Notes under the pieces: generated by a model
What the model saw: only the letters and a program-made list of their open reading frames with translations
Database searches by the model: none
What the model was told of the DNA's origin: nothing
Position numbers and translations under genes: made by a program
From: Lytechinus pictus
Lineage: Eukaryota
Reading direction: 5' to 3'
DNA: 64,000 nt
Assembly: GCF_037042905.1 (NCBI RefSeq)
Contig: NC_087252.1
Coordinates: forward strand, 5,148,001 to 5,212,000
Part shown: in pieces, positions 4,977-63,827 of the stretch
How positions within the stretch are numbered: position 1 is the stretch's first letter
Layout: each line of letters begins with the position of its first letter

Positions 4977-5510
4977 ATTCGTAATTCCGAAGCTTCGTTA
5001 TTCCGAAGGTTCGGATATTCCGAAGGTTCGTTATTCCGAAGGTTCGTAATTCCGAAGGTTAGTTAGTCCGAAAACGAAATGAGGTTCGTAATTCCGAAAG
5101 TTCGTTAGTCTGAAAACGAAGTGAGGTTCGTAATTCCGAGGGTTCGTTAATCCGAAGACGAAATGAGGTTCGTAATTCCGATGGTTCGTTAGTTCGCAAA
5201 CTAAATGATTAACGAACCTTATTTCGGTTTCGGACTAACGAACCTTCGGAACAACGAACCTTATTTCGTTTTCGGATTAACGAACCTTCGAAACAACGAA
5301 CCTTAGTTCTTTTTCGGATTAACGAACCTTCGGAACATCGAACCTTATTTCGTTTTCGGATTATCGAACCTTCGGAATAACGAAGCTTCGGAATAACGCG
5401 ACAAATGTTCGGATAAACAAACCCTTTTACGTTTTCGGATTAACGAACATCGAGGTAGAGGCAATTTACGTGTTTTGGAATTACAAACCTTCGGAATTAC
5501 GAAGTATAAC
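4977..5510. repeat. Dispersed repeat made of inverted arrays of TTCCGAAGGTTCG units
   Basis: Forward units at 4977-5200 and reverse units (CGAACCTTCGGAA) at 5210-5500. Further copies at 52655-52790 and 55085-55510. Confidence 0.75.
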
Positions 5511-6227: not shown

Positions 6228-7297
6228 TTAAGTAAGTTTATATCAGACCCTAAATTTTTTAAAGATCAAGTCTAACCAAAAATAAATGTTGATTTGAATG
6301 AAAAGTGAAAAAGCGTACTGCTGTAAATTTCATCAAAATTCGATGTGAAATAGACATGTTAAAGTTTTGCTTGTTTTTTTCTTTAAAAAAAAGTTATACG
6401 CACAACTCATTCACATGCTTTGAATTATACACTGTTACAGATGTGGCAATAGGAACACTACTAAACTATCAAATTTCAAAACGATGGTAATTCCTCATGA
6501 TTAGTGAGAAATAAAACGTCGTTTCTCTGCACAGTGAGGAGAAAATTCGAATATTTCATATATCCCATTTCCCCTCCTCACCAGCGATAGGTTATACATT
6601 GGGAATCATAACGTACAATCTGGACTAACATGATCATGGCTGCTGTTCGGTATAAGCTTGTCTGAAGACTCCTCCCCAAGCATAATTTTCAAGTGGACTA
6701 CCTCGAAAATATGCTAATGACAAAAATAAATGAAGGTAATTTATTTCCCCGAAATGACCGCCCTGTATTATTAGCATTGTTAATTTATATATAGCTTACA
6801 AGGGGGGGGGGGGGGGGGGCTTGGGTCCAGCTTTATGTCGTCAAAGTTCCACAACCAATCCAAAAGGAAAACAAGGAGAAAAATAAAGGAAATAAGACAT
6901 GTAAAAAAGAAATAGAGGGGAGGGGGGGGGGGGTTATATTGCGGGTTTTATTGTTATGCGTCGATCTATCAAAATTACATTCTAAAAAGGTCAAAATTTC
7001 TGCTCAATCTTTTTCGCTCATTTCGCCACAGAACACGTTAATGCAATGTATGAGGTATGGACTGAATACATTGCCTTTAATATGGTAACCCATTTGCATG
7101 TCTTATGTAAATTTACATATTACATCATTTGCATGTCACTGAGGTGTGCATATAACTATTTTGTGAAAAATAAGCGAAACTTTAAAATGCCATAACTTTC
7201 TTATTTTACATCCGACTTTGATGAAATTTTCAGCTTATGCTAGTTTGATTTTTCTCTATTTATTCAAATCAACAATTTCTGGGATGGACGTGACCTT

Positions 7298-7720
7298 TAA
7301 TCGCGACGATTTCATGTACAAAAATACTACTGGATGTACCAAATTTCGGACAACCTACCCCGTGCATACCTACATTATTATCATAATTTACTTCAGTCAC
7401 TAGGCTCGCTGCGTCAAATTGTAGACGATCGAGGGGCATTTTCGAGGGTGCCTGGATGCTTAACGTGCCCCCCTGAGCCATTAAATGTGGCCCCTGAAAT
7501 ATGTTTAAACCCGATTGTGAGTCAAGAAATATCAGCTGTGGCACCTCGGTCGGGTAAGGCCTCCAGGAACCCTCCGAAATGCCCCTCGATCGTCTACAAT
7601 TTGACGCAGCGAGCTTAGTGACTGAAGTAAATTATGATAATAATTTAGGTATGCACGGGGTAGGTTGTCCGAAACTTGGCACATCCAGTAGTATTTTTGT
7701 ACATGAAATCGTCGCGATTA
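7298..7720. mobile_element. MITE with ~170-bp TIRs, lying between two opposed Kolobok-like ends
   Basis: TAATCGCGACGATTTCATGTAC.../...GTACATGAAATCGTCGCGATTA. The flanks (7133-7297 and 7722-7889) match the termini of the element at 56828-57421. Confidence 0.7.
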
Positions 7721-8491
7721 CAAATCAAGTCAATCCCAGAAAAATTTTGATTTGAAATAAATAGAGAAAAATCAAATTAGCATAACGCTGAAAATTTCAT
7801 AAAAAACGGAGGTAAAATAAGAAATTTATGGCATTTTAAAGTTTCGCTTATTTTTCACAAAGTAGTTATATGCACATCTCAGTGACATGTAAATGAGACA
7901 GTCGATGATGTCCATCACTCACTATTTCTTTTGTTTCTTAATGTTTGAATTATACAATTGTTACAGTTTGGTAACAAGGACCAACTTGACTGCACAATAT
8001 AGTATTAAATAATGCTAATTCCACATGTTCTGGGAGGATTAATCGTTGTTTCACTTGACAATGAGAAAATTTGAAGATTTCATAAAATAAAAGACAAAAG
8101 AAATAGTGAGTGGATGACGTCATCAGTTTCCTCATTTGCATACCGACCATTACTTCCTTATTTTACATCCGATTTTGATGAAATGTTTAGTGTTATGCTT
8201 GTTAATTTTTTCCTCTCTTTATTCAAATAAACTTTCCATTTCAGACTTTCAACAGCAAATTGAGGCAAAATATAGAATAACATATTGTATTGGAAAGAGA
8301 GCCAGCTGGGAAGCACTAAATAGTTTTTGAATTTAACTTCAATTCCATTGAAGAAAAAAAATGGTTCAATTGTCTTCCAGAAAATTATATTTATGCCTTC
8401 GTCTTTTATTGTTGATCTTTATGATAAATATCTTCAATTTGTGATTGAGGGGTCTTTGATATCATATTCTGATTTGAAGACAGTGTCTTAC

Positions 8492-18272: not shown

Positions 18273-21200
18273 GTATGAGGCGCCGAATGTACCAATATTA
18301 TATAGAACAATTATTTGTTATATAATCATTATTTATTAAATAATAACTATTATTTATATATAATTTACATTTTATTTGTAAATAACTACTATTATATAAA
18401 ATATCATTTCTAATTATTTATATATAATTCCAAGTAATACTTCATTATTTGTAAATAATAATAGTTCGACATTCCATTATTTATAAATAATGATTATTTG
18501 TTTTTCATTATTTATAAATAATGATTATTTGTTTTTCATTATTTATAAATAATGATTATTTGTTTTTCATTATTTACAAATAATGATTATTTGTTTTTCA
18601 TTATTTATAAATAATGATTATTTGTTTTTCATTATTTATAAATAATGATTATTTGTTTTTCATTATTTACAAATAATGATTATTTGTTTTTCATTATTTA
18701 TAAATAATGATTATTTGTTTTTCATTATTTATAAATAATGATAATTGGTTTTTCATTATTTATAAATAATGATTATTTGTTTTTCATTATTTACAAATAA
18801 TGATTATTTGTTTTTCATTATTTATAAATAATTTGTTGAGTTTTCCATTATTTATAAATAATGATTATTTGTTAAATAATGAAAACGTCTACTTCATTAT
18901 TTATAAATAATTTTTTCGAGTGCACCATTATTCTCATTATTTATAAATAATCATTATTTAATGTTCGAGTTTTCCATTATTTATAAATAAAGATTATTTG
19001 TTAAATAATGAAATATCTACTTCATTATTTATAAATAATAATTTTGTTTCAATATCCCATTAATCATTATTTATAAACAATTGTTACAGTTTGCCATTAT
19101 ATACAAATAATCATTATTTATATACAAATAACCATTATTTATTAAATAATGCCATTATTTATTAAATAATGCCATTATTTATTAAATAATGGAAAACTCG
19201 CTATAACATGCAAATGTGGGACCGCCCATGATATGAATATTCATGATGCGATTTCCTTTTTCGTGATTTTTCTTCACAAATTTTTGTCCATTTCCTCTTC
19301 ATAATGACATTTCTTGAAGCAATTTTCTAGGGATATGGTCTGATTGTAATATTCTTCATTTTCTATATAACTTCGTCTTCGTAGAAATATCAAAAAGTGT
19401 AATTTCATACGATTTTTCCTACAGTTCACAATCCCCATAGGCGCGCGTGTACGGTAGGGACAACCGGTGAATCGACGGAGTGCTCTTCATCGAAATACTA
19501 CGTTGGTTGGTCCCCGGAAGTGGCGGGCGGAATTTAGCCCGAATCCTCGATGGAAGTCGATCAAGTGCATATGAGCTGAGAGAGTGAAATATCAGTGTAC
19601 TTGTACAGGCCCTTCTACTTTTTATAAATATTTCTTGTTGCTTTTTTTGTTAAGTTAATTTTTCCTGGTGTAGAGATAAGTTTCAGTTCTAATAATGCAC
19701 TTCAAATACATTTTGGAGTGTCTGTTTGAGGCGTTTGGGGCGATTTCACCCTGGCCCCAAAATGCTCGCAACGACAATACGGGGGCATGATGACCCCTAA
19801 ATTTTAAAAAACTTATTTTTCTATTGAAAATTATCACAAAATTCACCAAAAGTGTGCACGAAAGCCTTCGTATTTCACTTTTAAAACTCCAAAAAGTGCC
19901 CAAATGACAAGCTTGGTCGCTTCGCTGTGTCGCTTTCAACTTGAGAACGTTTACGCGTCTGCTTCCCCCCCGGGGCCCCCCTCCTCCGAAAGAAATTATG
20001 TATACGGCCATGCTCTAAAGAGCCTGGTACATTGATTTATGTATACTTCATTTTCATTATTTTTATCTCATTATCATCATGGCCTTACGCAGAATTTTTT
20101 CCGGGGGGGGGGTGGGGGGAGCAGGACGCGCGTAAACTTTCTCATAAAAATCTTGAAAAAGCGAAGCGACCAAGCTTGTCATTTGAGCTTGGTCGCGTCG
20201 CTGTCTCGCTTTCAAGATTTTTTTGAGAAACTTTACGCGCGTCCTAGCTGCTCCCCCCCCCCCGGTAAAAATTCTGTGTAAGGCCATGATGATAATGTGA
20301 TAAAAATAATGAAAATGAAAAGTACATATAAATCAATGTGCCATATGCTCTTTTGAGCATGGCCGTTCACAGAATTTCTTTCGGGGGGTGGGGGCAGACG
20401 CGCGTAAACGTTCTCAAGTTGAAAGCGAGACAGCGAAGCGACCAAGCTTGTCATTTGGGCTTGGTCCCGTGGCTGTCTCGCTTTCAAGATTTTTTTGAGA
20501 AAGTTTACGCGCGTCATGCTCCGGCCCCGGCCCCCCTGGAAAAAATTCTGCGTAAGGCCATGTTGATAATGAGATAAAAATAATGAAAATGAAAGTATAC
20601 ATAAATCAATGTGCCAGGCTCTTTAGAGCATGGCCGTATACAGAATTTCTTTCGGAGGAGGGGGGCCGGGGGATATATCGAAGCAGACGCGTAAACGTTC
20701 TCGTTGAATGCGACACAGCGAAGCGACCAAGCTTTTTGGAGTTTTAAAAGTGAAATACGAAGGCTTTCGTGCACACTTTTGGTGAATTTTGAGATAATTT
20801 TCAATAGAAAAATAAGTTTTTAAAAATTTAGGGGTCATCATGCCCCCGTATTGTCGTTGCGAGCATTTTGGGGCCAGGGTGAAATCGCCCCAAACGCCTC
20901 AAACAGACACTCCAAAATTTATTTGAAGTGCATTATTAGAACTGAAACTTATCTCTACACCAGGAAAAATTAACTTAACAAAAAAAGCAACAAGAAATAT
21001 TTATAAAAAGTAGAAGGGCCTGTACAAGTACACTGATATTTCACTCTCTCAGCTCATATGCACTTGATCGACTTCCATCGAGGATTCGGGCTAAATTCCG
21101 CCCGCCACTTCCGGGGACCAACCAACGTAGTATTTCGATGAAGAGCACTCCGTCGATTCACCGGTTGTCCCTACCGTACACGCGCGCCTATGGGGATTGT

Positions 21201-22395
21201 GAACTGTAGGAAAAATCGTATAAAATTACACTTTTTGATATTTCTACGAAGACGAAGTTATATAGAAAATGAAGAATATAACAATCAGACCATATCCCTA
21301 GAAAATTGCTTCAAGAAATGTCATTATGAAGAGGAAATGGACAAAAATTTGTGAAGAAAAATCACGAAAAAGGAAATCGCATCATGAATATTCATATCAT
21401 GGGCGGTCCCACATTTGCATGTTATAGCGAGTTTTCCATTATTTAATAAATAATGGCATTATTTAATAAATAATGGCATTATTTAATAAATAATGGCATT
21501 ATTTAATAAATAATGGCATTATTTAATAAATAATGGTTATTTGTATATAAATAATGATTATTTGTATATAATGGCAAACTGTAACAATTGTTTATAAATA
21601 ATGATTAATGGGATATTGAAACAAAATTATTATTTATAAATAATGAAGTAGATATTTCATTATTTAACAAATAATCTTTATTTATAAATAATGGAAAACT
21701 CGAACATTAAATAATGATTATTTATAAATAATGAGAATAATGGTGCACTCGAAAAAATTATTTATAAATAATGAAGTAGACGTTTTCATTATTTAACAAA
21801 TAATCATTATTTATAAATAATGGAAAACTCAACAAATTATTTATAAATAATGAAAAACAAATAATCATTATTTGTAAATAATGAAAAACAAATAATCATT
21901 ATTTATAAATAATGAAAAACCAATTATCATTATTTATAAATAATGAAAAACAAATAATCATTATTTATAAATAATGAAAAACAAATAATCATTATTTGTA
22001 AATAATGAAAAACAAATAATCATTATTTATAAATAATGAAAAACAAATAATCATTATTTATAAATAATGAAAAACAAATAATCATTATTTGTAAATAATG
22101 AAAAACAAATAATCATTATTTATAAATAATGAAAAACAAATAATCATTATTTATAAATAATGAAAAACAAATAATCATTATTTATAAATAATGGAATGTC
22201 GAACTATTATTATTTACAAATAATGAAGTATTACTTGGAATTATATATAAATAATTAGAAATGATATTTTATATAATAGTAGTTATTTACAAATAAAATG
22301 TAAATTATATATAAATAATAGTTATTATTTAATAAATAATGATTATATAACAAATAATTGTTCTATATAATATTGGTACATTCGGCGCCTCATAC
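18273..22395. mobile_element. 4,123-bp non-coding foldback (palindromic) element with 4-bp TSD AGAG
   Basis: AGAG|GTATGAGGCGCCGAATGTACC...GGTACATTCGGCGCCTCATAC|AGAG; arms ~1.9 kb. The empty site (GACCACAGAGACGGG) is seen in the intact repeat copies near 63343-63357 on the minus strand. Confidence 0.92.
18475..18835 (+). repeat. 31-bp AT-rich tandem array in the left foldback arm (mirror at ~21835-22195)
   Basis: Unit CATTATTTATAAATAATGATTATTTGTTTTT contains the 18-bp palindrome CATTATTTATAAATAATG. Confidence 0.9.
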
Positions 22396-29020: not shown

Positions 29021-31744
29021 TGTACTATATAGGCTAAAATTTTCGCTTCGCGCTCGCATCCACATCTACTTCAGAATTTTCATGCATAGTGCTTGAAAAA
29101 GTGCATAAATTTACCCCTTTTCGGACTGGAATATGAAGTATTTTTAGCTCGCGCTTCGCTCTCGCTTTATATTTGAATGCTTTTCCAGTTCTGATTTGCT
29201 TTGCAAAGTGTACATCGATAATTATTACTATTATTGTTTTTACTATTACGAAGTTATATTATGCATGTGTGTAAAATTAGGTAATGAAAATAAATTTTGG
29301 GGCTGGCCTCACATACAAGCATTGCTTATTTTTGGCAGCCCCTCCGTTTCACTCTAATTTACAAAAAAATCATTTCAGGCAGCTTAATGTCATTAATTGT
29401 GTTTATCAAATCTAGAGGCCTTATTATGTTTTATAAGATGTTATGTTACGTTATACATGTATGTTATGTTATACCGAGGTTCTACCTGACTGCTAAGAAA
29501 GCACGAATACCTGTGAGCAAGCAACCAGGGGACCAACGGCTTAAGGTCCTCTCTGATGGACCTGGTAATGAGGACAAATGCCTTGCCTTTTGCCTGGCGA
29601 CTATTTTAGCTACGGCTTTGGTTTTTTTCTTTGAAAGAAATAACATTTTCGTTTGAATTATTTGTTTTTCTTTCTTTCTCCTCCATTCTTTTCTTTTGTT
29701 CTGTTTTATTTTCTTTTCCCCTTTTTTATTCTTCTTATTTTGTTCCTCTACCTTCTTTTCATTTTTTTTTGTCTGTTTTCTTTTTCTTTCTTCCCTTTTT
29801 TATTCTTCTCTTTTGCCTTTTGCTCTTTTCCTTTTTTTCTTCTTCGTCATTTTTCTTCTTTTCTTTTTTTTGTCTCTAATTTTTTTCTTGTCTTTATCCT
29901 CTCTTTTTCTTCTTTGTATCTTCATTGTTTTCGATATATTATGCACATGGTATCGTACTACAAGTTTTTTTTTTATTATTATTATTGGAAACTGTATAGA
30001 TATATGTAAATAAACAAGTGAAGAAATAAATGAACACTCATAGGAATATATTCGTTGATCAAAATTATTGAGTGATCAGCAAACCATCTATTTAAGATAT
30101 TGATGCCTATTTTTTTTTTTAACCCAGCCTCTGACAGGCCTTTGCTGGCTTAGCCTAGAGGACTCCGTGATGTAAAATGATTTAAAAATATAATCATGGA
30201 GTCCAATGCTGGCTCCCACATATTTTAATTTTTTTTCTCTCTCTTGTTATGTTTTCCATTTTGTTTATTTTGTATACTGTGCATGTATCCTTAGTTTCAA
30301 TTTGAAATGTATGTTGTATTTTTTAATGAGAATTTAAAATAAATAAATGAAATGAAAATATATGCAAATCTCATTATCATCCAACAACCATTTTCATACA
30401 ATATTGATGTATTAATTTGTATTATGTTTGAACGGAGATCGTAAGATAGAGTATAGAATCATGAAATGTGATTATAATTTATATGTTTGTTTATATAGAT
30501 TAATATGTTATCTTTTATCTTCTTGGCATTTTTTAAGCTTCAATCATTGAGTATATAAATCTCTGCGGGATAAGTATAGGCCTATAATTACTAAGAATTG
30601 AGTTGCTCATTATAGGACGCATAATCATGCTTGTCTGATTGTTTTCCTGGCGTCCAATAGGTTTTTTTCTAAAGACATTCCATTCTTTATATTGTTTTTG
30701 CTTAAGAATTAATGAATAATCATAGCGACACTAAATCAGCTTATCTTTACTTCTACTACTATACAATTGAAGAATTGACGCAGAAATCAAATTTTGTGAT
30801 AGATTTTGTCATAACATCCCAATACAAGTTAGGCCTTTATCATGCACCTTTTCCTTTTTTTCTATAACAAGTACGTAGCAAGGAGGCGGTGTGAGGATCT
30901 TTCCCACCCTAACGCCCCCCCCCAAAAAAAAGGAGAAACGGTGATTGCGAAGGGGGAAACAATGGCGAAAAAGATAGCTTTGCGGGATTTTCTTTCTCAT
31001 TCTCTCTAAACATTTGCTTCCGCGCATGTTTGCGAGAAAATCATTGTTTTTCTCATTTGTTTACCTTTCTGTACTACTCCGTTTTCTTATCCCGGCTATA
31101 TTGCTAGTGTGTTTCGTGGCGGCATCAAGTTTTAAAGAATAATATTTGGGAACGGAATTAGTATTAACATTATAGGTCAAAGCCAGGGGCGGAAATCTCT
31201 CCCAAAAGGTAGGGGGGACACAGGGGCGGATCCAGCCTTCGCCAATAGGGGGGGGGGGCGGAAATTTGTTTCAGCCATATTTTCCCCGATCGGCAGCTCG
31301 AAGATGATTTTTGTTTGTTTCTTTGAAGGGATAGTCCTCATTAGTCACTTCTTAGCTTTATTCTTATTAATTAATATATAATATCATAATCCTTATTTAT
31401 ATGATGCGAGCGCGAAGCGCGAGTCAATTTTTTTGGGACATTTTCACCCAAAGAATGGAAATTCTAAGCGCTTTTTGTAACTCAAGCAGAATAGGTATAT
31501 AAGTAAACAATTGATGCGAGCGCGAAGCGCGAACGGAAAATTTCGAGATTTAGTCCTATAATATTTACTGAACGAGACACTCTATTCACGTTTTGTAAAT
31601 CATGAAAAGGATGAGTATTAATAATGCGAGCGCAAAGCGCGAGCAGAAAATTTTTATATACGTTTTGAACTGGTACCTGTTGAAAAGGTAGCTGTTAAGG
31701 ACTGCTTGCACTTAAGTAGTTATAGGTTAGACCTCATACCAACT

Positions 31745-31995
31745 TGACCTTTGATCTTTGACCCATGACCTTTGACCCATGCCCTTTGACCTGGTCAGCT
31801 ATGACCTTTAGCCCGGTCAGCCTTTGACCTTTGGCCCGGTCAGCCATGACCTTTAGCCTGTTCAGCCTTTGACCACATGACCTTTAGCCTGTCAGCCTTT
31901 GACCTTTAGCCCAGTAAGCCATGACCTTTAGCCCGGTCATCCATGCCCTTTACCCCGGTCAGCCTTTGACCACACGACCCGATGGGTTGACCCAG
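31745..31995. repeat. Subterminal array of ~14 TGACC(T/C/A) motifs (mirror at ~36478-36728)
   Basis: Includes TGACCTTTGACCC at 31766-31778, an AGGTCA-type DR1. Confidence 0.8.
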
Positions 31996-33142
31996 ACTTC
32001 CGGCCAGCCACAACGTCACCATGAATCGGTATTACGACACAGTTACGCAACCACGGCCGTGATGTCATATCCCAGGGAATTACCCTTTACCCGGTATTGC
32101 ACCACCGTGGCGCAATCGTCACGTATAGGATACGATGCACAAAACAGACGTATGATTTCTGCACAGTTTCCTATCGAAAAAAGGATCTTTCTCCGCCTTC
32201 CAGCGGATATGTCAACCGCCTCGCATGACGTCACCGGCTACGTAAGCACCGTGATGTCATCCCAGGGAATTCCCCTTATCCCATCGTATCGGTATTGCAC
32301 CACCGTGGCGCAATCGTCACGTATAGGATACGATGCACGAAACAGACGTATGATTTCTACACAGTTTCCTATTGAAAAAATTATCTTTCTTTGCCTACCA
32401 GCAGATATGTCGAACCCGATATGTCAAGTGCCTCGCGGTTCACGAATCGATCACCCCACTCACGACCAACGCCCGTCATTGAACTTGGGATATCCTATTC
32501 AAGGTGAAAGCCGGCTCTCTCTGTCTCTTATTACAACAATTATTGGTAATCCAACATGTGATTATAATCCTGATAACAGTGGCATCTCAAGCTCTACTCA
32601 TTCCAGACTTTCCCCCATCAAAACTCTCTGACTTTTCCATACTGTTTTGTACATACCTCCATACTTTTCATTTTAACTCACATGACCTGCACGGCTCTCT
32701 GACCCGCAAAAGTATACTATATTGAAACCCGTAGACGACTCCTTTCAATCAACTTCATTCATCCGCAGTACAGATGGTGATAACATGAAACACTATACAG
32801 TCAAGGATGATTCTTTATTATTACTATCATTTATTCTATTCCATTTCAATGTAGATAGGTTCAATTAGTGTATAAACAGCAGATTTTGATACAAAGGTAA
32901 AAATAATGTAAGATATGTTCTCAAATTACGTTGTCACAACAAAATAATTAACTGTTCATTGTTAATATTAAAGTGAAGTTCTCGTTTTTTTCTTTTCCTT
33001 CGCTTAACTTATTGGATTGTAACACATGTCTATGGATGGCATTCAGAAAATATGAACACAATGAAGTTCAAACTGTCATTTATGCCCGCATTTATGTTGA
33101 CGGCGTTTTCTTGGATTATTCGACAAGCTGATGTTTGTGCCT

Positions 33143-33793
33143 TTAGTTGTAGGTTCCATCTTCACCCTCCGTTTCTTCTCCACCATCATCATTATCGTCA
33201 TCGTCACCTTGATACTGGAATAAACCATCGAATTGTGAACCATGCCTGGCTAACACTCTCTGTACGGCTTTCCGGAATTCCATGCCATTCTCTAATCTTT
33301 CCGTGAGATCGGACACGATTTCATGATTGATGTCAGCGTCTTCGAGGTACACGTTCTGCTGCAAGAACTGAGAGTACAGATCGAAAAAGATGCGTTTGAC
33401 TGCCCACATTAGTTTCACGTGAGCCTTTGCTTTAGCGTCTTCTTCTTCCATTCCTTCTGAGATGTATTTCTGATATTTTTCGTCTCTCAAGTCCTTGGTG
33501 GCCGTCATGGCTTGCTCTAACCATCCTCGATAAGCGAGGTTGTCTTCAGTTTCTTCCATGTTTGCTGTCATTGACGATTCGTGTCCATCGCTTTCTGATA
33601 CGCTCGTTTCGGAATCACCGTTGGATTCTTCAACTCTTTGCATTTGAGAGGATGGGTCGGATTCTTCATCTTCACTCGTTTCTTCTCCAGTATCATGCTC
33701 AATTTGTTCATGCCTCTGCATGTTATATTTCCTACTAAAAGTTTTATCGCATCGTGAACAAGCGTAACGGTTGGACATATCCAATATATTCAT
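33143..33793 (-). CDS. C2H2 zinc-finger protein with acidic tracts, 216 aa from the first ATG (left copy)
   Basis: YACSRCDKTFSRKYNMQRHEQIEH = C-x2-C-x12-H-x4-H, then an acidic linker, a helical domain and an acidic tail. Intronless; translation identical to the right copy. Confidence 0.85.
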   Translation of the reverse strand: MNILDMSNRYACSRCDKTFSRKYNMQRHEQIEHDTGEETSEDEESDPSSQMQRVEESNGDSETSVSESDGHESSMTANMEETEDNLAYRGWLEQAMTATKDLRDEKYQKYISEGMEEEDAKAKAHVKLMWAVKRIFFDLYSQFLQQNVYLEDADINHEIVSDLTERLENGMEFRKAVQRVLARHGSQFDGLFQYQGDDDDNDDGGEETEGEDGTYN

Positions 33794-33885
33794 GCTGACT
33801 CGATGATTATTTGTTGGGAAATGAAGAAAATTAACGTTCAAACTTGTAATTATACGTAATCATGAAACGCGCGCGAAGGTACTTT

Positions 33886-34283
33886 GATTCTTACGGATTT
33901 TTACGCATTCTTACGGATTCTTACTCATTCTTACGGATTCTTACGGATGTTTACTCATTCTTACTCATTCTTACTCATTCTTACGGATTTTTTACGGATT
34001 CTTACGGATGTTTACGGATTCTTACGGATGTTTACGGATTCTTACGGATGTTTACGGATTCTTACGGATTCTTACTCATTCTTACGGATTCTTACTCATT
34101 CTTACGGATTCTTACGGATTTTTTACGGATTCTTACGGATGTTTACGGATTCTTACGGATTCTTACTCATTCTTACGGATTCTTACTCATTCTTACGGAT
34201 TCTTACGGATTTTTTACGGATTCTTACGGATGTTTACGGATTCTTACGGATTCTTAGGGATGTTTACGGATCCTTACGGATCC
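33886..34283 (+). repeat. 10-bp minisatellite, ~40 units (TTACGGATTC / TTACGGATGT / TTACTCATTC)
   Basis: Directly visible; a shorter inverted array (~24 units) lies at 34364-34609. Confidence 0.95.
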
Positions 34284-34326
34284 ACGTTGGAATGACCCAT
34301 GCTGCATGGGTCATTCTAGCGTGGAT
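34280..34326. other. Central hairpin of the palindromic element
   Basis: ATCCACG-TTG-GAATGACCCATGC-T-GCATGGGTCATTC-TAG-CGTGGAT: a 13-bp perfect inverted repeat around T34303, extendable to 23 bp with two G-T pairs. Confidence 0.9.
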
Positions 34327-34363
34327 GAACATATTTTCCTTGAGATTATATGAAAGCATTGAT

Positions 34364-34609
34364 TAATCCGTAAAAATCCGTAAGAATCCGTAAGAATCCT
34401 AAACATCCGTAAGAATCCGTAAACATCCGTAAACATCCGTAAGAATCCGTAAACATCCGTAAGAATCCGTAAAAAATCCGTAAGAATCCGTAAGAATGAG
34501 TAAGAATCCGTAAGAATGAGTAAGAATCCGTAAGAATCCGTAAACATCCGTAAGAATCCGTAAACATCCGTAAGAATCCGTAAACATCCGTAAGAATCCG
34601 TAAAAAATC
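34364..34609 (-). repeat. Inverted 10-bp minisatellite, ~24 units
   Basis: GAATCCGTAA / ACATCCGTAA / GAATGAGTAA units. Confidence 0.95.
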
Positions 34610-34617
34610 AAAGTACC

Positions 34618-34680
34618 TTCGCGCGCGTTTCATGATTACGTATAATTACAAGTTTGAACGTTAATTTTCTTCATTTCCCA
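34618..34680 (+). promoter_or_regulatory. Putative Pol II core promoter of the zinc-finger gene (mirror at ~33815-33877)
   Basis: TTCGCGCGCG (E2F-like), TATAAT at 34641, and Inr-like TCATTTC at 34671 (~30 nt spacing). ATG at 34702 has A at -3. Confidence 0.5.
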
Positions 34681-34701
34681 ACAAATAATCATCGAGTCAG
34701 C

Positions 34702-35352
34702 ATGAATATATTGGATATGTCCAACCGTTACGCTTGTTCACGATGCGATAAAACTTTTAGTAGGAAATATAACATGCAGAGGCATGAACAAATTGAGCAT
34801 GATACTGGAGAAGAAACGAGTGAAGATGAAGAATCCGACCCATCCTCTCAAATGCAAAGAGTTGAAGAATCCAACGGTGATTCCGAAACGAGCGTATCAG
34901 AAAGCGATGGACACGAATCGTCAATGACAGCAAACATGGAAGAAACTGAAGACAACCTCGCTTATCGAGGATGGTTAGAGCAAGCCATGACGGCCACCAA
35001 GGACTTGAGAGACGAAAAATATCAGAAATACATCTCAGAAGGAATGGAAGAAGAAGACGCTAAAGCAAAGGCTCACGTGAAACTAATGTGGGCAGTCAAA
35101 CGCATCTTTTTCGATCTGTACTCTCAGTTCTTGCAGCAGAACGTGTACCTCGAAGACGCTGACATCAATCATGAAATCGTGTCCGATCTCACGGAAAGAT
35201 TAGAGAATGGCATGGAATTCCGGAAAGCCGTACAGAGAGTGTTAGCCAGGCATGGTTCACAATTCGATGGTTTATTCCAGTATCAAGGTGACGATGACGA
35301 TAATGATGATGGTGGAGAAGAAACGGAGGGTGAAGATGGAACCTACAACTAA
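34702..35352 (+). CDS. C2H2 zinc-finger protein with acidic tracts, 216 aa from the first ATG (right copy)
   Basis: Identical translation to the left copy. AATAAA at 35660 and 35676, followed by a GT-rich tract. Confidence 0.85.
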   Translation: MNILDMSNRYACSRCDKTFSRKYNMQRHEQIEHDTGEETSEDEESDPSSQMQRVEESNGDSETSVSESDGHESSMTANMEETEDNLAYRGWLEQAMTATKDLRDEKYQKYISEGMEEEDAKAKAHVKLMWAVKRIFFDLYSQFLQQNVYLEDADINHEIVSDLTERLENGMEFRKAVQRVLARHGSQFDGLFQYQGDDDDNDDGGEETEGEDGTYN

Positions 35353-38300
35353 AGGCACAAACATCAGCTTGTCGAATAATCCAAGAAAACGCCGTCAACA
35401 TAAATGCGGGCATAAATGACAGTTTGAACTTCATTGTGTTCATATTTTCTGAATGCCATCCATAGACATGTGTTACAATCCAATAAGTTAAGCGAAGGAA
35501 AAGAAAAAAACGAGAACTTCACTTTAATATTAACAATGAACAGTTAATTATTTTGTTGTGACAACGTAATTTGAGAACATATCTTACATTATTTTTACCT
35601 TTGTATCAAAATCTGCTGTTTATACACTAATTGAACCTATCTACATTGAAATGGAATAGAATAAATGATAGTAATAATAAAGAATCATCCTTGACTGTAT
35701 AGTGTTTCATGTTATCACCATCTGTACTGCGGATGTCTACGGGTTTCAATATAGTATACTTTTGCGGGTCAGAGAGCCGTGCAGGTCATGTGAGTTAAAA
35801 TGAAAAGTATGGAGGTATGTACAAAACAGTATGGAAAAGTCAGAGAGTTTTGATGGGGGAAAGTCTGGAATGAGTAGAGCTTGAGATGCCACTGTTATCA
35901 GGATTATAATCACATGTTGGATTACCAATAATTGTTGTAATAAGAGACAGAGAGAGCCGGCTTTCACCTTGAATAGGATATCCCAAGTTCAATGACGGGC
36001 GTTGGTCGTGAGTGGGGTGATCGATTCGTGAACCGCGAGGCACTTGACATATCGGGTTCGACATATCTGCTGGTAGGCAAAGAAAGATAATTTTTTTCAA
36101 TAGGAAACTGTGTAGAAATCATACGTCTGTTTCGTGCATCGTATCCTATACGTGACGATTGCGCCACGGTGGTGCAATACCGATACGATGGGATAAGGGG
36201 AATTCCCTGGGATGACATCACGGTGCTTACGTAGCCGGTGACGTCATGCGAGGCGGTTGACATATCCGCTGGAAGGCGGAGAAAGATCCTTTTTTCGATA
36301 GGAAACTGTGCAGAAATCATACGTCTGTTTTGTGCATCGTATCCTATACGTGACGATTGCGCCACGGTGGTGCAATACCGGGTAAAGGGTAATTCCCTGG
36401 GATATGACATCACGGCCGTGGTTGCGTAACTGTGTCGTAATACCGATTCATGGTGACGTTGTGGCTGGCCGGAAGTCTGGGTCAACCCATCGGGTCGTGT
36501 GGTCAAAGGCTGACCGGGGTAAAGGGCATGGATGACCGGGCTAAAGGTCATGGCTTACTGGGCTAAAGGTCAAAGGCTGACAGGCTAAAGGTCATGTGGT
36601 CAAAGGCTGAACAGGCTAAAGGTCATGGCTGACCGGGCCAAAGGTCAAAGGCTGACCGGGCTAAAGGTCATGGCTGACCAGGTCAAAGGGCATGGGTCAA
36701 AGGTCATGGGTCAAAGATCAAAGGTCAAGTTGGTATGAGGTCTAACCTATAACTACTCACTTAGCCATGAAGGCGTTACATATTTTCAACAATTAAAAGA
36801 TGCGAGCACGAAGCGCGAGCTGAAAAATTTTGAACTTTCTAAAGAAAGAAAGGAAACTTTTAATCAGTTTTTGTAATCGTGAACAGGATAGCTCTATAAT
36901 TTAATAATTGATGCGAGCGCGAAGAGCGAGCAGAAAAAAAAATCAAGATTTAGACCTAAAAATGGGCCACTCTGTTCATGTTTTGTAAATCATAAAAAGG
37001 ATGAGTAATATGGGGTCTTCCTACATTAATAAAGTGAGCACAAAGCGCGAGCAGAAAAATAGTGATATTGTGATCTGAAACTGGATAATGATTTAAATAG
37101 AGAACAAGTTGAGTATCTGAATAAACATGCGCGCGCGTGTTTCATATTTAGACCTAGAATCTAGGCATTCTAAATACATCTTCAATCATGAAAATCATGA
37201 AACTTTGATATTCCGATCTGAAAAAAGAGTCAAGTTCAGCTTTAAATTTCAAGCACTTTGTAGAAAAATTGTAAGGTGGATATGGATCGCACTTAAAAAC
37301 CGGAGCTGATATTTTCATTATTATTACTCTGAGTTTTGACATAGGACCGGGACATCCTTACAACATGTCATCATATGAAAATGATGACTATCTTCCTATT
37401 CCTCTTGCTAAGCGAGATGAAACAAAAGGGACAATTTGATTATTAAATTAATATCATATTTATTAATGCCCGTAATATGAGGGCGCGAAATCTGATGATA
37501 TTATGGCATAGAAAGTGGACATTTCACTTCTGTAATTATGAATAGGATGCATCAGTTAATGTATTTTTAACCATTAATGCGAGCGCAAATTGCGAGGTAA
37601 AATTTTTGATAAACTGTGTCATGAATAGGGGATTATAAGTAGTTTGTTGTATAATCAATATTGAAACATATATAACTCGCCAATCAAAATGCGAGCGTGC
37701 AGCACGCTAGCTGATAAGTCTTAACAATCAGACCTGAAAAGGGATATTTTGAAAACTTTATGAAATACACGAAAATAATAGGTACCTGATAAATCAAAAT
37801 TTGCGAGCGCGCAGCGCAAGCAGCAAATGTTAATATTCAGACCATAAAACTGACATTTTTACAGAGCACTTTTTAAAAATCAATTTGTAAATCACACAAA
37901 ATAATGAAAGTTCGATTTCCGAGGTGAAATATGTTTTGTATATTGACTTCCAAACTTGACATTCGAGCTCCATATTGAACAAGATATTAAATCACCTAAC
38001 AGGCAATGCGAGCGCGAAGCGCGAGCGAAAATTTTCTATAGTGGCACGAAAGATTCTTTTTATTTTTCAAGTCTTCCTCTCATCTTATTTTATGCACTCG
38101 TCGTCCTTCTCTTCTTTTCTCCTCTCTTTTCCCTCCTTTATTCCTTCTTTCTTTCCCTTTCTTCTTTTTTTGCTCCGCCAAGAGAGGGGGGGGGGGGGGG
38201 GCCTCGGCCCCCTGGTCCGCCTACGGGGACAAGAGGCGGGAAATTTGACAAGCAAAAAAAAAGGTTATCATCCCAAAAGTAAGGTCATCTCGTCCCAACT

Positions 38301-38816
38301 CGTCCCAAAAAATACATGTTTTATTTCGATTTAGAATGATGTATTTCTTACCATCATAAAAGACAAAAAAAAGTAGGGGGGACATTTGATATTGTGTCCC
38401 CCCTACTATTTTGAGTAGGGGGGACACGTCCCCCCTGTCCCCCCCGGGATTTCCGCCCATGGTCAAAGTATATGAAGTCATTTTGTCTTCAAATTGATCA
38501 CACAACATTTCCGATCCTTATAGGTCAGGGTGGTAAACTCTATAATAATAATGCCGTCAATTACCCACAAAGGCTACTTCTTCCGTTTTTCAGCTCTTTA
38601 CTAGTCAGTCATAATTTATTTGGGGACCGCGGACGGCCTGTTCCTCATTTAAAAGGGGCAGTTATACAAATTGTGCCGTACCTTATATATAAAAAAAGAA
38701 AGTACAATTTTACTATAGAATTATATGGAAGTTCATGTCATCAATCTCCTGTCGCCTATTTTTGCGCCATTAATTTGATATTTAGCATGTCACTTAAGTT
38801 CCTAATCATCCAAATA

Positions 38817-56150: not shown

Positions 56151-59100
56151 CAGGGGCGGAAATCTCTCCCAAAAGGTAGGGGGGACACAGGGGCTGATCC
56201 AGACTTCGCCAATAGGAGGGAGGCGGAAATTTGTTTCAGCCATATTTTCCCCGATCGGCAGCTCGAAGATGATTTGTGTTTGTTTCTTTGAAGGGGTAGT
56301 CCTCATTAGTCACTTCTTAGCTTTATTCTTATGAATTCATATACAATATCATAATCCTTATTTATATGATGCGAAGCGCGAGCTAATTTTTTTGGAAATT
56401 TTATGTATTTTTTCCTAAAATTTGAACATTCTGGGCAATGTTTGTTATCCTGAAAAATTACTACGAACGTAAAGCGCGAGCAGAAATGAACTGATGGAAA
56501 AGATACCTGTTAAAGACTGCGTGCAGTTAGCATTTAACAATCAAATAATGCGAGCGCGAAGCGCGAGCTGATTTTTTAAAAACATTTTCACCTAAAGAAT
56601 GGAGATTCTAAGCGCTTTTTATAACTCGAGCAAAATAGGTATATAAGTAGACAATTGATGCGAGCGCGAAGCGCGAGCGGAAAATTTCGAGATTTACTGA
56701 ACGAGACACTCTATTCATGTTTTGTAAATCATGAAAAGAATGAGTATTAATACTGCGAGCGCAAAGCGCGAGCAGAAAATTTTTATATACGTTTTGAACT
56801 GGTACCTGTTGAAAAGGTACCTGTTAAAGGTCAAGTCAACCCCAGAAAAAAGTTTATTTAAATAAATAGAGAAAAATCAAACATGAATAACACTGAAAAC
56901 TTCATCAAATTCGGATGTAAAATAAGAAAGTTATGACATTTTAAAGTTTCGCTTATTTTTCACAAAACAGTTCTATGCTCAACTCAATGATATGCAAATG
57001 AGAGAGTCAATGATGTCACTCACTCACTATTTCTTTTGTTTTTTATTGTTTGCATTAAACAATATTTCAATTTTACGAATTTTACAATTAAGACTCCCTT
57101 GCTTGAACCACAAAATGTTAAAATAATGGAATTCCACGTGTTCGGGGAGGAATGACATGACAAGCACATGACAATGACAATAAAATCAAAATATTTCATA
57201 TAACAAAATACAAAAGAAATAGTGAGTGGGTGATGCCATCGGTCCCCTCATTTGCATACCGAACAGGATGTGCATATAACTGTTTATAGAATTTAAGCGA
57301 AACTTAAAAAGATTATAACTTTCTTATTTTTCATCCGATTTTGATGAAATTTTCAGTGTTATGCTTGTTTGATTTTTCACTTTCTATTCAAATCAGCTTT
57401 CTGTTGGGGTGGACTTGTCCTTTAAGGACTGCTTGCACTTAGCCATGAAGGCGTTACATATTTCAATAATAAAAATATGCGAGCGCGAAGCGCGAGCTTA
57501 AAAAATTTGAAAATTTCTAAAGAAAGAATGGAAAATTTTAATCAATTTTTGTAATCGTGAACAGGATAGCTATATAATTCAACAATTGATGCGAGCGCGA
57601 AGCGCGAGCAGAAAAAAATCGAGATTTAGACCTAAAAATGGGCCACTCTGTTCATGTTTTGTAAACAGCCATAGGCTGATCGAGGGCTTTTTACCGTGTT
57701 TAAATAAAATAAATTAATCAAAATCAATGTTTTGTAAATCATGAAAAGGATGAGTAATAGGGGGTCTTCCTACATTAATAATGCGAGCACAAAAGCGCGA
57801 GCAGAACATTTTTGATATTGTGATCTGAAACTGGATAATGATTTAAATAGAGAACAAGTTGAGTATTTGAATAAACATGCGCGCGCGTGTTTCATATTTA
57901 GACCTAGAATCTAAGAATTCTAAATACATCTTTAATCATGAAAATCATGAAACTTTTATATTCCGATCTGAAAAAAGAGTCAATTACAGCTTTATATTTC
58001 AAGCACTTTGTAGGAAAATTGTAAGGTGGATATGGATCGCACTTAAAAAAAAAGAGCTAAAATTTTCATTATTATTACCTGAGTTTTGACATAGGACCGG
58101 GACATCCTTACGACATGTCATGAAAATGATGACTATCTTCCTATTCCTCTTGCTAAGTGCGAGATGAAACAAAATGGACAATTTAATTATTAAATTAATA
58201 TCATATTTATTCATGCCTAATGAGGGCGCGAAATCTGATGATATTATGGCATAAAAACTGGACATTTCACTTTTGTAATTATGAATAGGATGCATCAGTT
58301 AATATATTTTTAACCAATAATGCGAGCGCAAATCGCGAGCTAAATTTTTTGATAAACTGTCATGAAAAGGGGATTTTAAGTAGTTTGTTGCATAATCAAT
58401 ATTGAAACATACATAACTCGCCAATCAAAATGCCAGCGTGCAGCGCTAGCTGATACGTCTTGACAATCAGACCTGAAAAGGGATATTTTGAAAACTTTAT
58501 GGAATACACGAAAATAATAGGTACCTGATAAATCAAAATTTGCGAGTGCGCAGCGCAAGCAGCAAATGTTGATAAAATTATTCAGACCATAAAACTGACA
58601 TTTTTACAGAGCACTTTTTAAAAATCAATTTGTAAATCACACATAATAATGAAAGTTCGATTTCCGAGGTGAAATATGTTATGTATATTGATTTCCAAAC
58701 TTGATATTTGAGCTCCATATTGAACAAGATATGTAAATCACCTAACAGGCAATGCGAGCGCGAAGCGCGAGCGAGAATTTTATATAGTGGCACGAAAGAT
58801 TCTTTTTATTTTCCAAGTCTTCCCCTCATCTTATTTTATGCACTCGTCGTCCTTCTCTTCTTTTCCTCCTCTCTTTTCCCTTATTTTTCCTTCCTTCTTT
58901 CTTTCCCTTTTTTCTTTTTTGCTCCGCCAATGGGGGGGGGGGGGGGGGGTTGGGGGGGGGGGGGGCTCGGCCCCCCTGGATCCGCCTATGGGGACAAGGG
59001 GCGGGAAAATTTGACAAGCAAAAAAAAGGTTATCATCCCAAAAGTACGGTTATCTCGTCCCAAAATACATGTTTTATTTCGATTTAGAATGATGTATTTC

Positions 59101-59214
59101 TTACCATCATAAAAGACAAAAAATAGTAGGGGGGACATTTGATATTGTGTCCCCCCTACTCAAAATAGTAGGGGGGACACGTCCCCCCTGTCCCCCCTAG
59201 GATTTCCGCCCATG
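56151..59214 (+). mobile_element. Second copy of the hAT-like non-autonomous element
   Basis: CAGGGGCGGAAATC...GATTTCCGCCCATG; flanks ACTGAAGG/ACTGAAGA. Confidence 0.8.
56828..57421. mobile_element. Kolobok-like element nested in the hAT-like copy
   Basis: TTAA|AGGTCAAGTCAACCCCA...TGGGGTGGACTTGTCCT|TTAA; the empty site CTGTTAAGGACTG is at 31692-31704. Confidence 0.85.
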
Positions 59215-63345: not shown

Positions 63346-63417
63346 GTCTCTGTGGTCTAGTGGTTAAGGCACCGGCGTTCAAAGCTGGGGGCCCGGGTTC
63401 GATTCCCGGCAGAGACA
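63346..63417 (+). tRNA. tRNA-like gene, Glu-like body with TCA anticodon (repeat-borne, function unknown)
   Basis: 72-nt cloverleaf: GTCTCTG/CAGAGAC acceptor stem, CCGGC-GTTCAAA-GCTGG anticodon arm, CCGGG-TTCGATT-CCCGG T arm, followed by T6. Confidence 0.55.
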
Positions 63418-63755: not shown

Positions 63756-63827
63756 GTCTCTGTGGTCTAGTGGTTAAGGCACCGGCGTTCAAAGCTGGGG
63801 GCCCGGGTTCGATTCCCGGCAGAGACA
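63756..63827 (+). tRNA. Second, identical tRNA-like copy with TCA anticodon
   Basis: Identical to 63346-63417. Confidence 0.55.

Follow-up and report, generated by a model that had tools for sequence, protein, structure and literature searches.

We analyzed a window of 64,000 nt from Lytechinus pictus (NCBI RefSeq assembly GCF_037042905.1, contig NC_087252.1, positions 5,148,001 to 5,212,000 of the forward strand), in which positions 31715-36757 are occupied by a mobile element of 5043 nt. This element is a near-perfect inverted duplication with the ends of a Polinton and a zinc-finger gene in each arm. By its ends, its target-site duplications (TSDs) and its helpers, it is a non-autonomous and not an autonomous Polinton, and a diversified palindromic lineage, an own gene and a matching array set it apart from a plain deletion derivative. 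It is very probably a helper-dependent Polinton satellite. The explanation that we consider likely is a gene-bearing, non-autonomous satellite of AGTAGT-ended Polintons that is replicated and integrated in trans.

Architecture of the element and its insertion site

The first-pass annotation of the window had claimed an inverted duplication with arms of ~2.2 kb. This was borne out by the reverse-complement alignment of the left arm (31715-33885, + strand, 2171 nt), which acts as a giant terminal inverted repeat (TIR), with the right arm (34610-36757, - strand, 2148 nt), giving 2146 matches. The arm differences named in the same annotation were all confirmed, namely one single-nucleotide polymorphism (31800/36672), a 1-nt indel in an A run (insertion at 36097) and a 24-nt deletion near 35735 (at 35736 in the alignment). 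The ends read AGTAGT...ACTACT, as claimed. The left terminus (31715-31737, +) consists of the invariant AGTAGTTA, a variable 6-nt spacer and the invariant AGACCTCAT; it is common to three helper Polintons, and the right arm ends with the same terminus variant. The exact 6-bp TSD CACTTA is present at 31709-31714 and 36758-36763 (both +). The insertion hit a host repeat (31184-38461, +) with 14-bp TIRs and 8-bp flanks that agree at 7 of 8 positions, which by these features we take to be hAT-like. A sister copy of this repeat at 56151-59214 carries the empty site with a single CACTTA at 57436-57441, and the claim of an uninterrupted target thus also stood.

The zinc-finger gene in each arm and the asymmetric center had been overlooked. 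The left copy of the gene lies at 33143-33793 (-) and is supported by its open reading frame (ORF), Pfam and a structure model; the right copy at 34702-35352 (+), supported by its ORF and the arm alignment, encodes an identical protein of 216 aa. Both genes point outward from the center (divergent). Upstream of the left gene lies a 10-bp minisatellite of AATCCGTAAG with AATGAGTAAG units (33886-34281, -), which is a candidate binding array, and upstream of the right gene lies the right 10-bp minisatellite (34365-34609, +; tandem repeat 34365-34603). The 83-nt core between them (34282-34364) is asymmetric and holds a local stem of ~22 bp; related sequence is central in several other copies. The center of the window element is two minisatellites around an asymmetric core, not a turn-round hairpin. 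The core Polinton genes are missing, as previously annotated: no pPolB or rve integrase was found among the 15 ORFs of >=50 aa of the element, PF03175 had no match at the locus, and when the two longest ORFs were scanned in Pfam only the zinc-finger ORF matched, with no ATPase, protease or capsid.

A family of palindromic copies

The 812-Mb assembly was searched for further copies, which are labelled by contig (C) or locus (L). All 150 scored candidates of the protein search (best 150 of 320) matched, mostly as inverted pairs. The degenerate terminus had 157 matches in the genome, compared with 2 for the reversed control. The terminus table rests on at least 100 of these 157 matches and holds 126 termini; the tandem array at C17:8.13-8.18 Mb, the internal duplicate end at C17:12796767 and three off-motif rows were left out. 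Other palindromic copies with distinct TSDs were counted from this table, which contained at least 45 inward-facing end pairs of <=8 kb (1.9-7.4 kb, median 5.07 kb). The 6-bp TSDs matched at 14 of the 15 older loci in which neither end is damaged (L042 fails, L040 matches via its outer end, and one TSD is common to L037 and L038) and at all 5 young copies checked. Altogether, 19 different TSDs of 6 bp were found, the window copy included, and the insertions lie at many unrelated loci. This is a family of dozens of copies, explained neither by chance nor by assembly fold-back.

The young subfamily (Asn at finger position +3) comprises 28 near-identical loci. The protein of subfamily 2 is 72-79% identical to that of the window, with the frame kept, and in the more distant subfamily 3 the first part of the gene is intact. 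Three centers read from subfamilies 2 and 3 (L061-L063) were head-to-head inverted pairs, one of them (L062) without one gene start. Subfamily-2 gene pairs are convergent at C20:8818179-8820910 and C17:9749496-9752503, which suggests that an element with one gene gave rise to palindromes from one side or the other. At C17:8134560-8181441, a tandem array of ~47 kb contains many satellite units, with all listed ends of the helper-type GGGGTT variant; it could be a replication concatemer or a product of later unequal crossing-over.

Locus searches gave no match in viral_contigs or in the first metagenome scan. The second metagenome scan gave 6 short contigs, of which 4 carried the family gene with its finger, 1 was a fragment and 1 carried an unrelated finger. 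The four metagenome relatives (L055-L058, ~40% identity) adjoin minisatellites, and in L056 and L058 the arrays are inverted on both sides. With its single gene copy between the inverted arrays, the element may be present in L056 and L058 in a non-palindromic state.

Helper Polintons and shared ends

Full-length Polintons with the same terminus were looked for, and among the matches listed (126 termini) three end pairs of 8-20 kb were found, each of 16-17 kb, at C6:1299810-1316732 (TSD CATATT), C17:12792967-12809161 (TSD ATCATG) and C21:5789358-5806584. All three end pairs enclose pPolB and ATPase matches, which upholds the first-pass assignment of the window ends to the Polinton type. The PF04665 profile gave 1 ATPase in the genome, and P0114, an ATPase-fused relative of the window protein described below, was then used as the ATPase query. 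The stretch of C17 that was read contains an rve integrase with a chromodomain; the ORFs beside it, none of which was named by Pfam, are presumably the major capsid, minor capsid, pVII-like and PW proteins. With at least 45 satellite and 3 helper end pairs, satellites outnumber helpers by ~15 to 1.

Against the helper stretches that were read (4.5 kb of C6 and ~6 kb of C17), the window arm matched only over its first 77 nt (77-83%). Therefore, the arm was not copied from the end of a helper, and since only the outer tens of bases are common with the helpers, the family is not a simple deletion derivative. A distant arm match deeper inside the helpers may exist, because the comparison covered these parts of C6 and C17, not whole helpers, C21 or other Polinton families. 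No finger-type minisatellite array was present in the helper stretches read.

In the C17 helper (L052/L053), the left end is duplicated ~3.8 kb inward and a capsid-like ORF ends early. About 12 further pPolB loci, some with frames of 1300-1800 aa, were unpaired with an AGTAGT terminus among the matches listed; these are candidate helpers for subfamilies 2 and 3.

Agreement of the two ends and proposed mode of replication

The terminus consists of two fixed blocks and two variable spacers, combined in many ways. The first spacer occurred in 15 variants among the at least 45 pairs, and both ends were alike in 44 of 45, compared with a mean of 4.5 and a maximum of 13 in 10,000 shuffles. In 16 older copies, the median arm-to-arm identity was 98.9%, as opposed to 86.6-93.8% to the window arm, and the arm-to-arm value was the higher one in 15 of the 16. 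The 22 paired young copies had 10 end variants among the matches listed, all three helper variants included. In the sole discordant pair, satellite L045, the left end matches a helper end over ~410 nt (80-87%) and the right end is of another variant. In the C6 helper, too, a single TSD encloses two ends that differ.

From these patterns we infer protein-primed strand displacement with panhandle fold-back, together with recombination of ends between helper and satellite. Adenovirus replicates by protein-primed strand displacement with panhandle fold-back. The family would thus be a genomic record of Polinton replication, in which the ends are alike within each copy, the spacers vary between fixed blocks and end sequence passes between a helper and its dependent element. 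The Polinton pPolB carries a terminal-protein domain (PMC11161782).

The zinc-finger protein

The 216-aa protein comprises a C2H2 finger (aa 10-33), an acidic linker and a helical domain (~aa 76-192). The finger, C-x2-C...H-x4-H, is at the Pfam cut-off (PF00096, 25.2 bits with a cut-off of 25.2, E = 2e-5), and in the structure model it forms two strands and a helix; the helical domain was modelled confidently. A fold search of BFVD gave 0 matches at E <= 0.001, the best match in PDB (Z 7.5) extended over a generic helical hairpin only, and the ESM Atlas gave only generic C2H2 clusters below the recognition mark.

Arm-shared changes in 14 older copies gave a pN/pS of 0.34, with 57 distinct codon changes (27 synonymous, 39 nonsynonymous; P = 3e-5 versus the neutral site ratio). 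In the helical domain, 15.5 synonymous changes stood against 16.5 nonsynonymous ones, where neutrality predicts 1 to 4.3. The retention of the frame across subfamilies is a stronger sign of selection than pN/pS, and we are fairly confident that the gene is under selection. In run X1, the read depth over the gene was 25-138 as compared with 8.6 in the outer arm, which is no more than suggestive, since the assignment of X1 to RNA is a guess. Read ends at 31714 that match the empty site may stem from other copies of the host repeat.

The closest named database homologues of the protein are from Lytechinus pictus. If the satellite reading is true, a family of ~200-aa proteins whose present annotation is 'dentin matrix phosphoprotein-like' or 'uncharacterized' would gain an identity. 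Two host proteins, P0012 (sialyltransferase-like) and P0015 (hydroxylysine-kinase-like), begin with the N-terminus of the satellite protein, through either gene-model fusion or exonization.

Covariation of the finger with its array

In the C2H2 recognition code, Asn at position +3 reads A, Asp at +3 reads C, and Arg at -1 and +6 reads G. By this code, Asn fingers are expected on GAG and Asp fingers on GCG. The +3 residue tracked the array in 7 of 7 lineages, with Asn accompanied by GAGTAA and Asp by (G/C)CGTAA. The Asn lineages are the window subfamily and the metagenome relatives L055 and L058, all with GAGTAA arrays; the Asp lineages are the older subfamily 1, subfamily 2, subfamily 3 and the metagenome relatives L056/L057, the latter two with GCGTAA arrays. 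The Asp lineages, subfamilies 2 and 3 included, are without GAGTAA arrays and use CCGTAA or GCGTAA. Counted by lineage, GAGTAA was present in 3 of 3 Asn and 0 of 4 Asp lineages (Fisher P = 0.029).

The window array, which belongs to an Asn finger, contains 10 ATGAGTAA units among 50 ATCCGTAA. The finger was readable at 16 of 20 older loci and was of the Asp type at all of them, with 0 or 1 ATGAGTAA each in 8-10 kb. Genome-wide, 79 of the 80 matches of the GAG-CCG-GAG array word were at 19 of the 28 Asn loci, and the remaining one was at a shortened copy of 2.8 kb. In the tree, the Asn fingers of the window and of L058 each grouped with Asp relatives in well-supported clades. Taken together, these patterns lead us to favor, with modest confidence, a zinc-finger protein that binds its own array. 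In this one-finger protein, a natural exchange of Asn and Asp goes with a corresponding exchange in the array.

Relatives fused to a packaging ATPase

A profile search with the protein family gave 42 representatives at E <= 1e-30, nearly all of which were unnamed single-domain relatives. In three more distant matches (P0114, P0097 and P0090), the helical domain follows an ATPase of the Polinton packaging type. P0114 scored above the curated cut-off of Pox_A32, P0097 matched Pox_A32 below the cut-off, and P0090, which had no Pfam ATPase match, contains a truncated ATPase as judged by eye. The tail of P0114 is 29% identical to the window protein (E = 2e-12), and in the tree the ATPase-fused relatives are the sister clade to the satellite-type proteins, on long branches. 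The cluster of P0004 consists of three eukaryote database proteins, two of them with consecutive accession numbers, as might be expected if the genes were arranged in pairs in another species.

Proposed mechanism and its weak points

In the proposed satellite cycle, the protein-primed polymerase of the helper would start at the ends common to satellite and helper. The displaced single strand would fold back via the 2.2-kb arms into a panhandle that restores the duplex origin, and copying of this panhandle would pass a change or an end swap from one arm to the other. The helper integrase would then insert the homogenized copy. The protein would bind the upstream array, most simply controlling its own divergent promoters, and might also tether satellite DNA to the packaging or replication machinery of the helper. 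Mobilization in trans, a recent insertion and a palindrome that predates integration had all been proposed in the first pass; the last two are supported, and the first draws support from the ends shared with enzyme-coding Polintons and from the 6-bp TSDs.

A wider reading, which we regard as doubtful, is a widespread animal class of satellites that parasitize Polinton viruses: a zinc-finger adaptor that stems from a domain once joined to the Polinton packaging ATPase would read the satellite's own array and steer the packaging motor of the helper onto satellite DNA, and ends would be swapped with the helper for compatibility, as a eukaryotic form of the piracy known from Staphylococcus aureus pathogenicity islands (SaPIs). 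Only the ATPase fusions of relatives would point to such a link with helper packaging.

Several points weigh against the satellite reading and its extensions. Binding, replication and integration are all inferred from sequence. The covariation is partly post hoc, having come to light in L055-L058, and comprises 7 lineages; the Asn/GAG link inside this genome is one event, and the placement of L055 in the tree is unsettled. The window array is mostly CCG (50 versus 10 GAG units), and CCG misfits the Arg+6 rule at its first base; moreover, the exact array word is missing at 9 of the 28 Asn loci. The pN/pS of the arm-private control, 0.51, was not different from that of the shared changes (Fisher P = 0.19), both ratios being computed without a CpG-bias term. 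Run X23 gave few RNA reads over the gene, distributed over both strands, and X24 gave almost none. The terminus and TSD evidence does not extend to subfamilies 2 and 3. As regards the ATPase, no copy of the gene was seen beside the ATPases of this genome (top candidates scored, nearest matches examined by eye), and three database proteins, encoded on short contigs, are the basis for a Polinton origin of the gene.

Alternative explanations

The family could be an ordinary non-autonomous Polinton derivative in which nothing but the ends matters, the zinc-finger gene is a passenger and its agreement with the minisatellite is a coincidence of shared ancestry. Such elements have been named (Polinton-1N1_DR, PMC9341505), shortened copies of the present family retain both ends (pairs down to 1.9 kb; L042 without a readable finger), and the copy at C1:14.30 Mb has a stop codon in both arms, so that a broken copy can still move. 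The weak selection control also agrees with a passenger. However, the reading frame is preserved from one subfamily to the next, as it is in the relatives of ~40% identity beside similar arrays, the helical domain departs from the neutral ratio, and the direction of the covariation is the one that the C2H2 code predicts. We therefore consider a passenger gene improbable.

The first-pass annotation had read the element as a recent defective-interfering snap-back genome, in which one viral end, here that of a helper Polinton, was copied head-to-head. The palindromic geometry, the Polinton ends and the TSD suit this reading, and palindromic derivatives of terminal-protein replicons (phi29, kalilo) are known. 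Moreover, the divergent and convergent gene pairs of subfamily 2 indicate that fold-back copying probably created the founders of subfamilies. For the window copy, a snap-back is already largely refuted: the 77 nt shared with the helper stretches read do not amount to a copied end, the core is asymmetric and not a turn-round, and dozens of insertions in at least three subfamilies with an own conserved gene make up a long-lived family instead. This origin is thus very improbable.

Slightly less probable still is that the arms are alike through host gene conversion after insertion and not through panhandle replication. Long inverted repeats can convert in place, as do the palindromes of the Y chromosome; against this, arm-private differences, one-arm stop codons included, persist in older copies, as do unlike ends within the intact TSDs of L045 and of the C6 helper.

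An artifact of assembling fold-back reads can practically be dismissed, and so can a fold-back element that belongs to some other superfamily of transposons, because the known tendency of long reads to yield long palindromes and the lack of depth over 31776-32066 in the public read runs examined are set against the TSD with its empty sister site, the asymmetric core, the arm differences, the 19 different TSDs and a terminus design identical to that of three pPolB-bearing elements.

Other features of the element and the window

Behind the left terminus lie TGACC-rich subterminal tandem repeats (31738-31979, +), and the helper ends hold similar words. A direct duplication of ~165 nt, 86% alike, follows within the arm (32057-32416, +), with mirror-image rows at 36055-36223 / 36255-36415. 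These two parts of the arm are rich in TGACCTTTGACC and TGACGTCA-like words. We take TGACCTTTGACC to be nuclear-receptor DR1-like, and the arm words are possible host-factor sites for induction. A 236-aa ORF at 31921 was rejected as a gene, as Pfam gave no match for it and its frame is disrupted in the right arm, and the ORFs within the minisatellites were likewise rejected.

The window contains a second, unrelated palindrome of 4.1 kb at 18273-22395, with 93% arm identity, the ends GTATGAGG...CCTCATAC, an apparent 4-bp TSD (AGAG) and no convincing ORF. It sits in a copy of a tRNA-like repeat, empty versions of which are present at 63346-63417 and 63756-63827 (tRNA-SeC according to ARAGORN), and is possibly a tRNA-targeting element. 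Smaller palindromic repeats resembling miniature inverted-repeat transposable elements lie at 56824-57425, 7125-7896 and 4980-5398, the first of them within a few bases of the empty target site.

Comparison with known systems

The window element has the same end motif, 6-bp TSD and inverted repeats as Polintons/Mavericks (polintoviruses, adintoviruses); in vertebrate Mavericks, these are an (AGT)2//(ACT)2 motif and a 6-bp TSD (PMC8097293). Mavericks are 12.7-24.6 kb long, carry the core genes and have inverted repeats of 46-1447 bp (PMC8097293), whereas the window element is 5 kb long, lacks pPolB, integrase, ATPase, protease and capsid, and has repeats of 2.2 kb that make up nearly the whole element and hold one gene twice. 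The Maverick 'pm' ORF sits between atp and pz (PMC8097293), and the relatives P0114, P0097 and P0090 have the helical domain directly after the ATPase and fused to it; the likeness is one of position only. Zinc fingers are not mentioned in the main text of PMC8097293, according to which Polinton particles have not been seen. Replication and particle formation of animal Polintons have not been observed directly.

One named non-autonomous Polinton is Polinton-1N1_DR (PMC9341505). As the name implies, such elements likewise have Polinton ends without the enzymes and are moved in trans, whereas the present family retains a conserved gene along with an array that matches it. No account of a palindromic non-autonomous Polinton, or of one that bears a gene, was found in the consulted parts, supplements aside, of PMC8097293, PMC8502044, PMC11161782, PMC6431247, PMC11296320, PMC9341505, PMC10748475, 10.1101/2024.01.15.575659 and 10.1101/2022.06.26.497686. 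An unpublished Repbase or Dfam entry may cover the family.

Palindromic derivatives of terminal-protein replicons include the phi29 mini-replicons, the kalilo hairpin derivative and the snap-back genomes of adenovirus. These likewise have two like ends placed head-to-head and are copied by protein priming in trans; however, they are transient by-products of the parent end, whereas the family described here is an integrated, diversified lineage with an own gene.

For a packaging adaptor, the small terminase of SaPIs provides an analogy. If the satellite explanation holds, the family would resemble phage-inducible chromosomal islands and SaPIs (PMC6431247), as well as transpovirons, in being a small integrated helper-dependent element with a self-serving gene. 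In contrast to these islands, it is eukaryotic and has neither an integrase nor a replicase of its own. Polintons would then have true gene-bearing satellites in animals.

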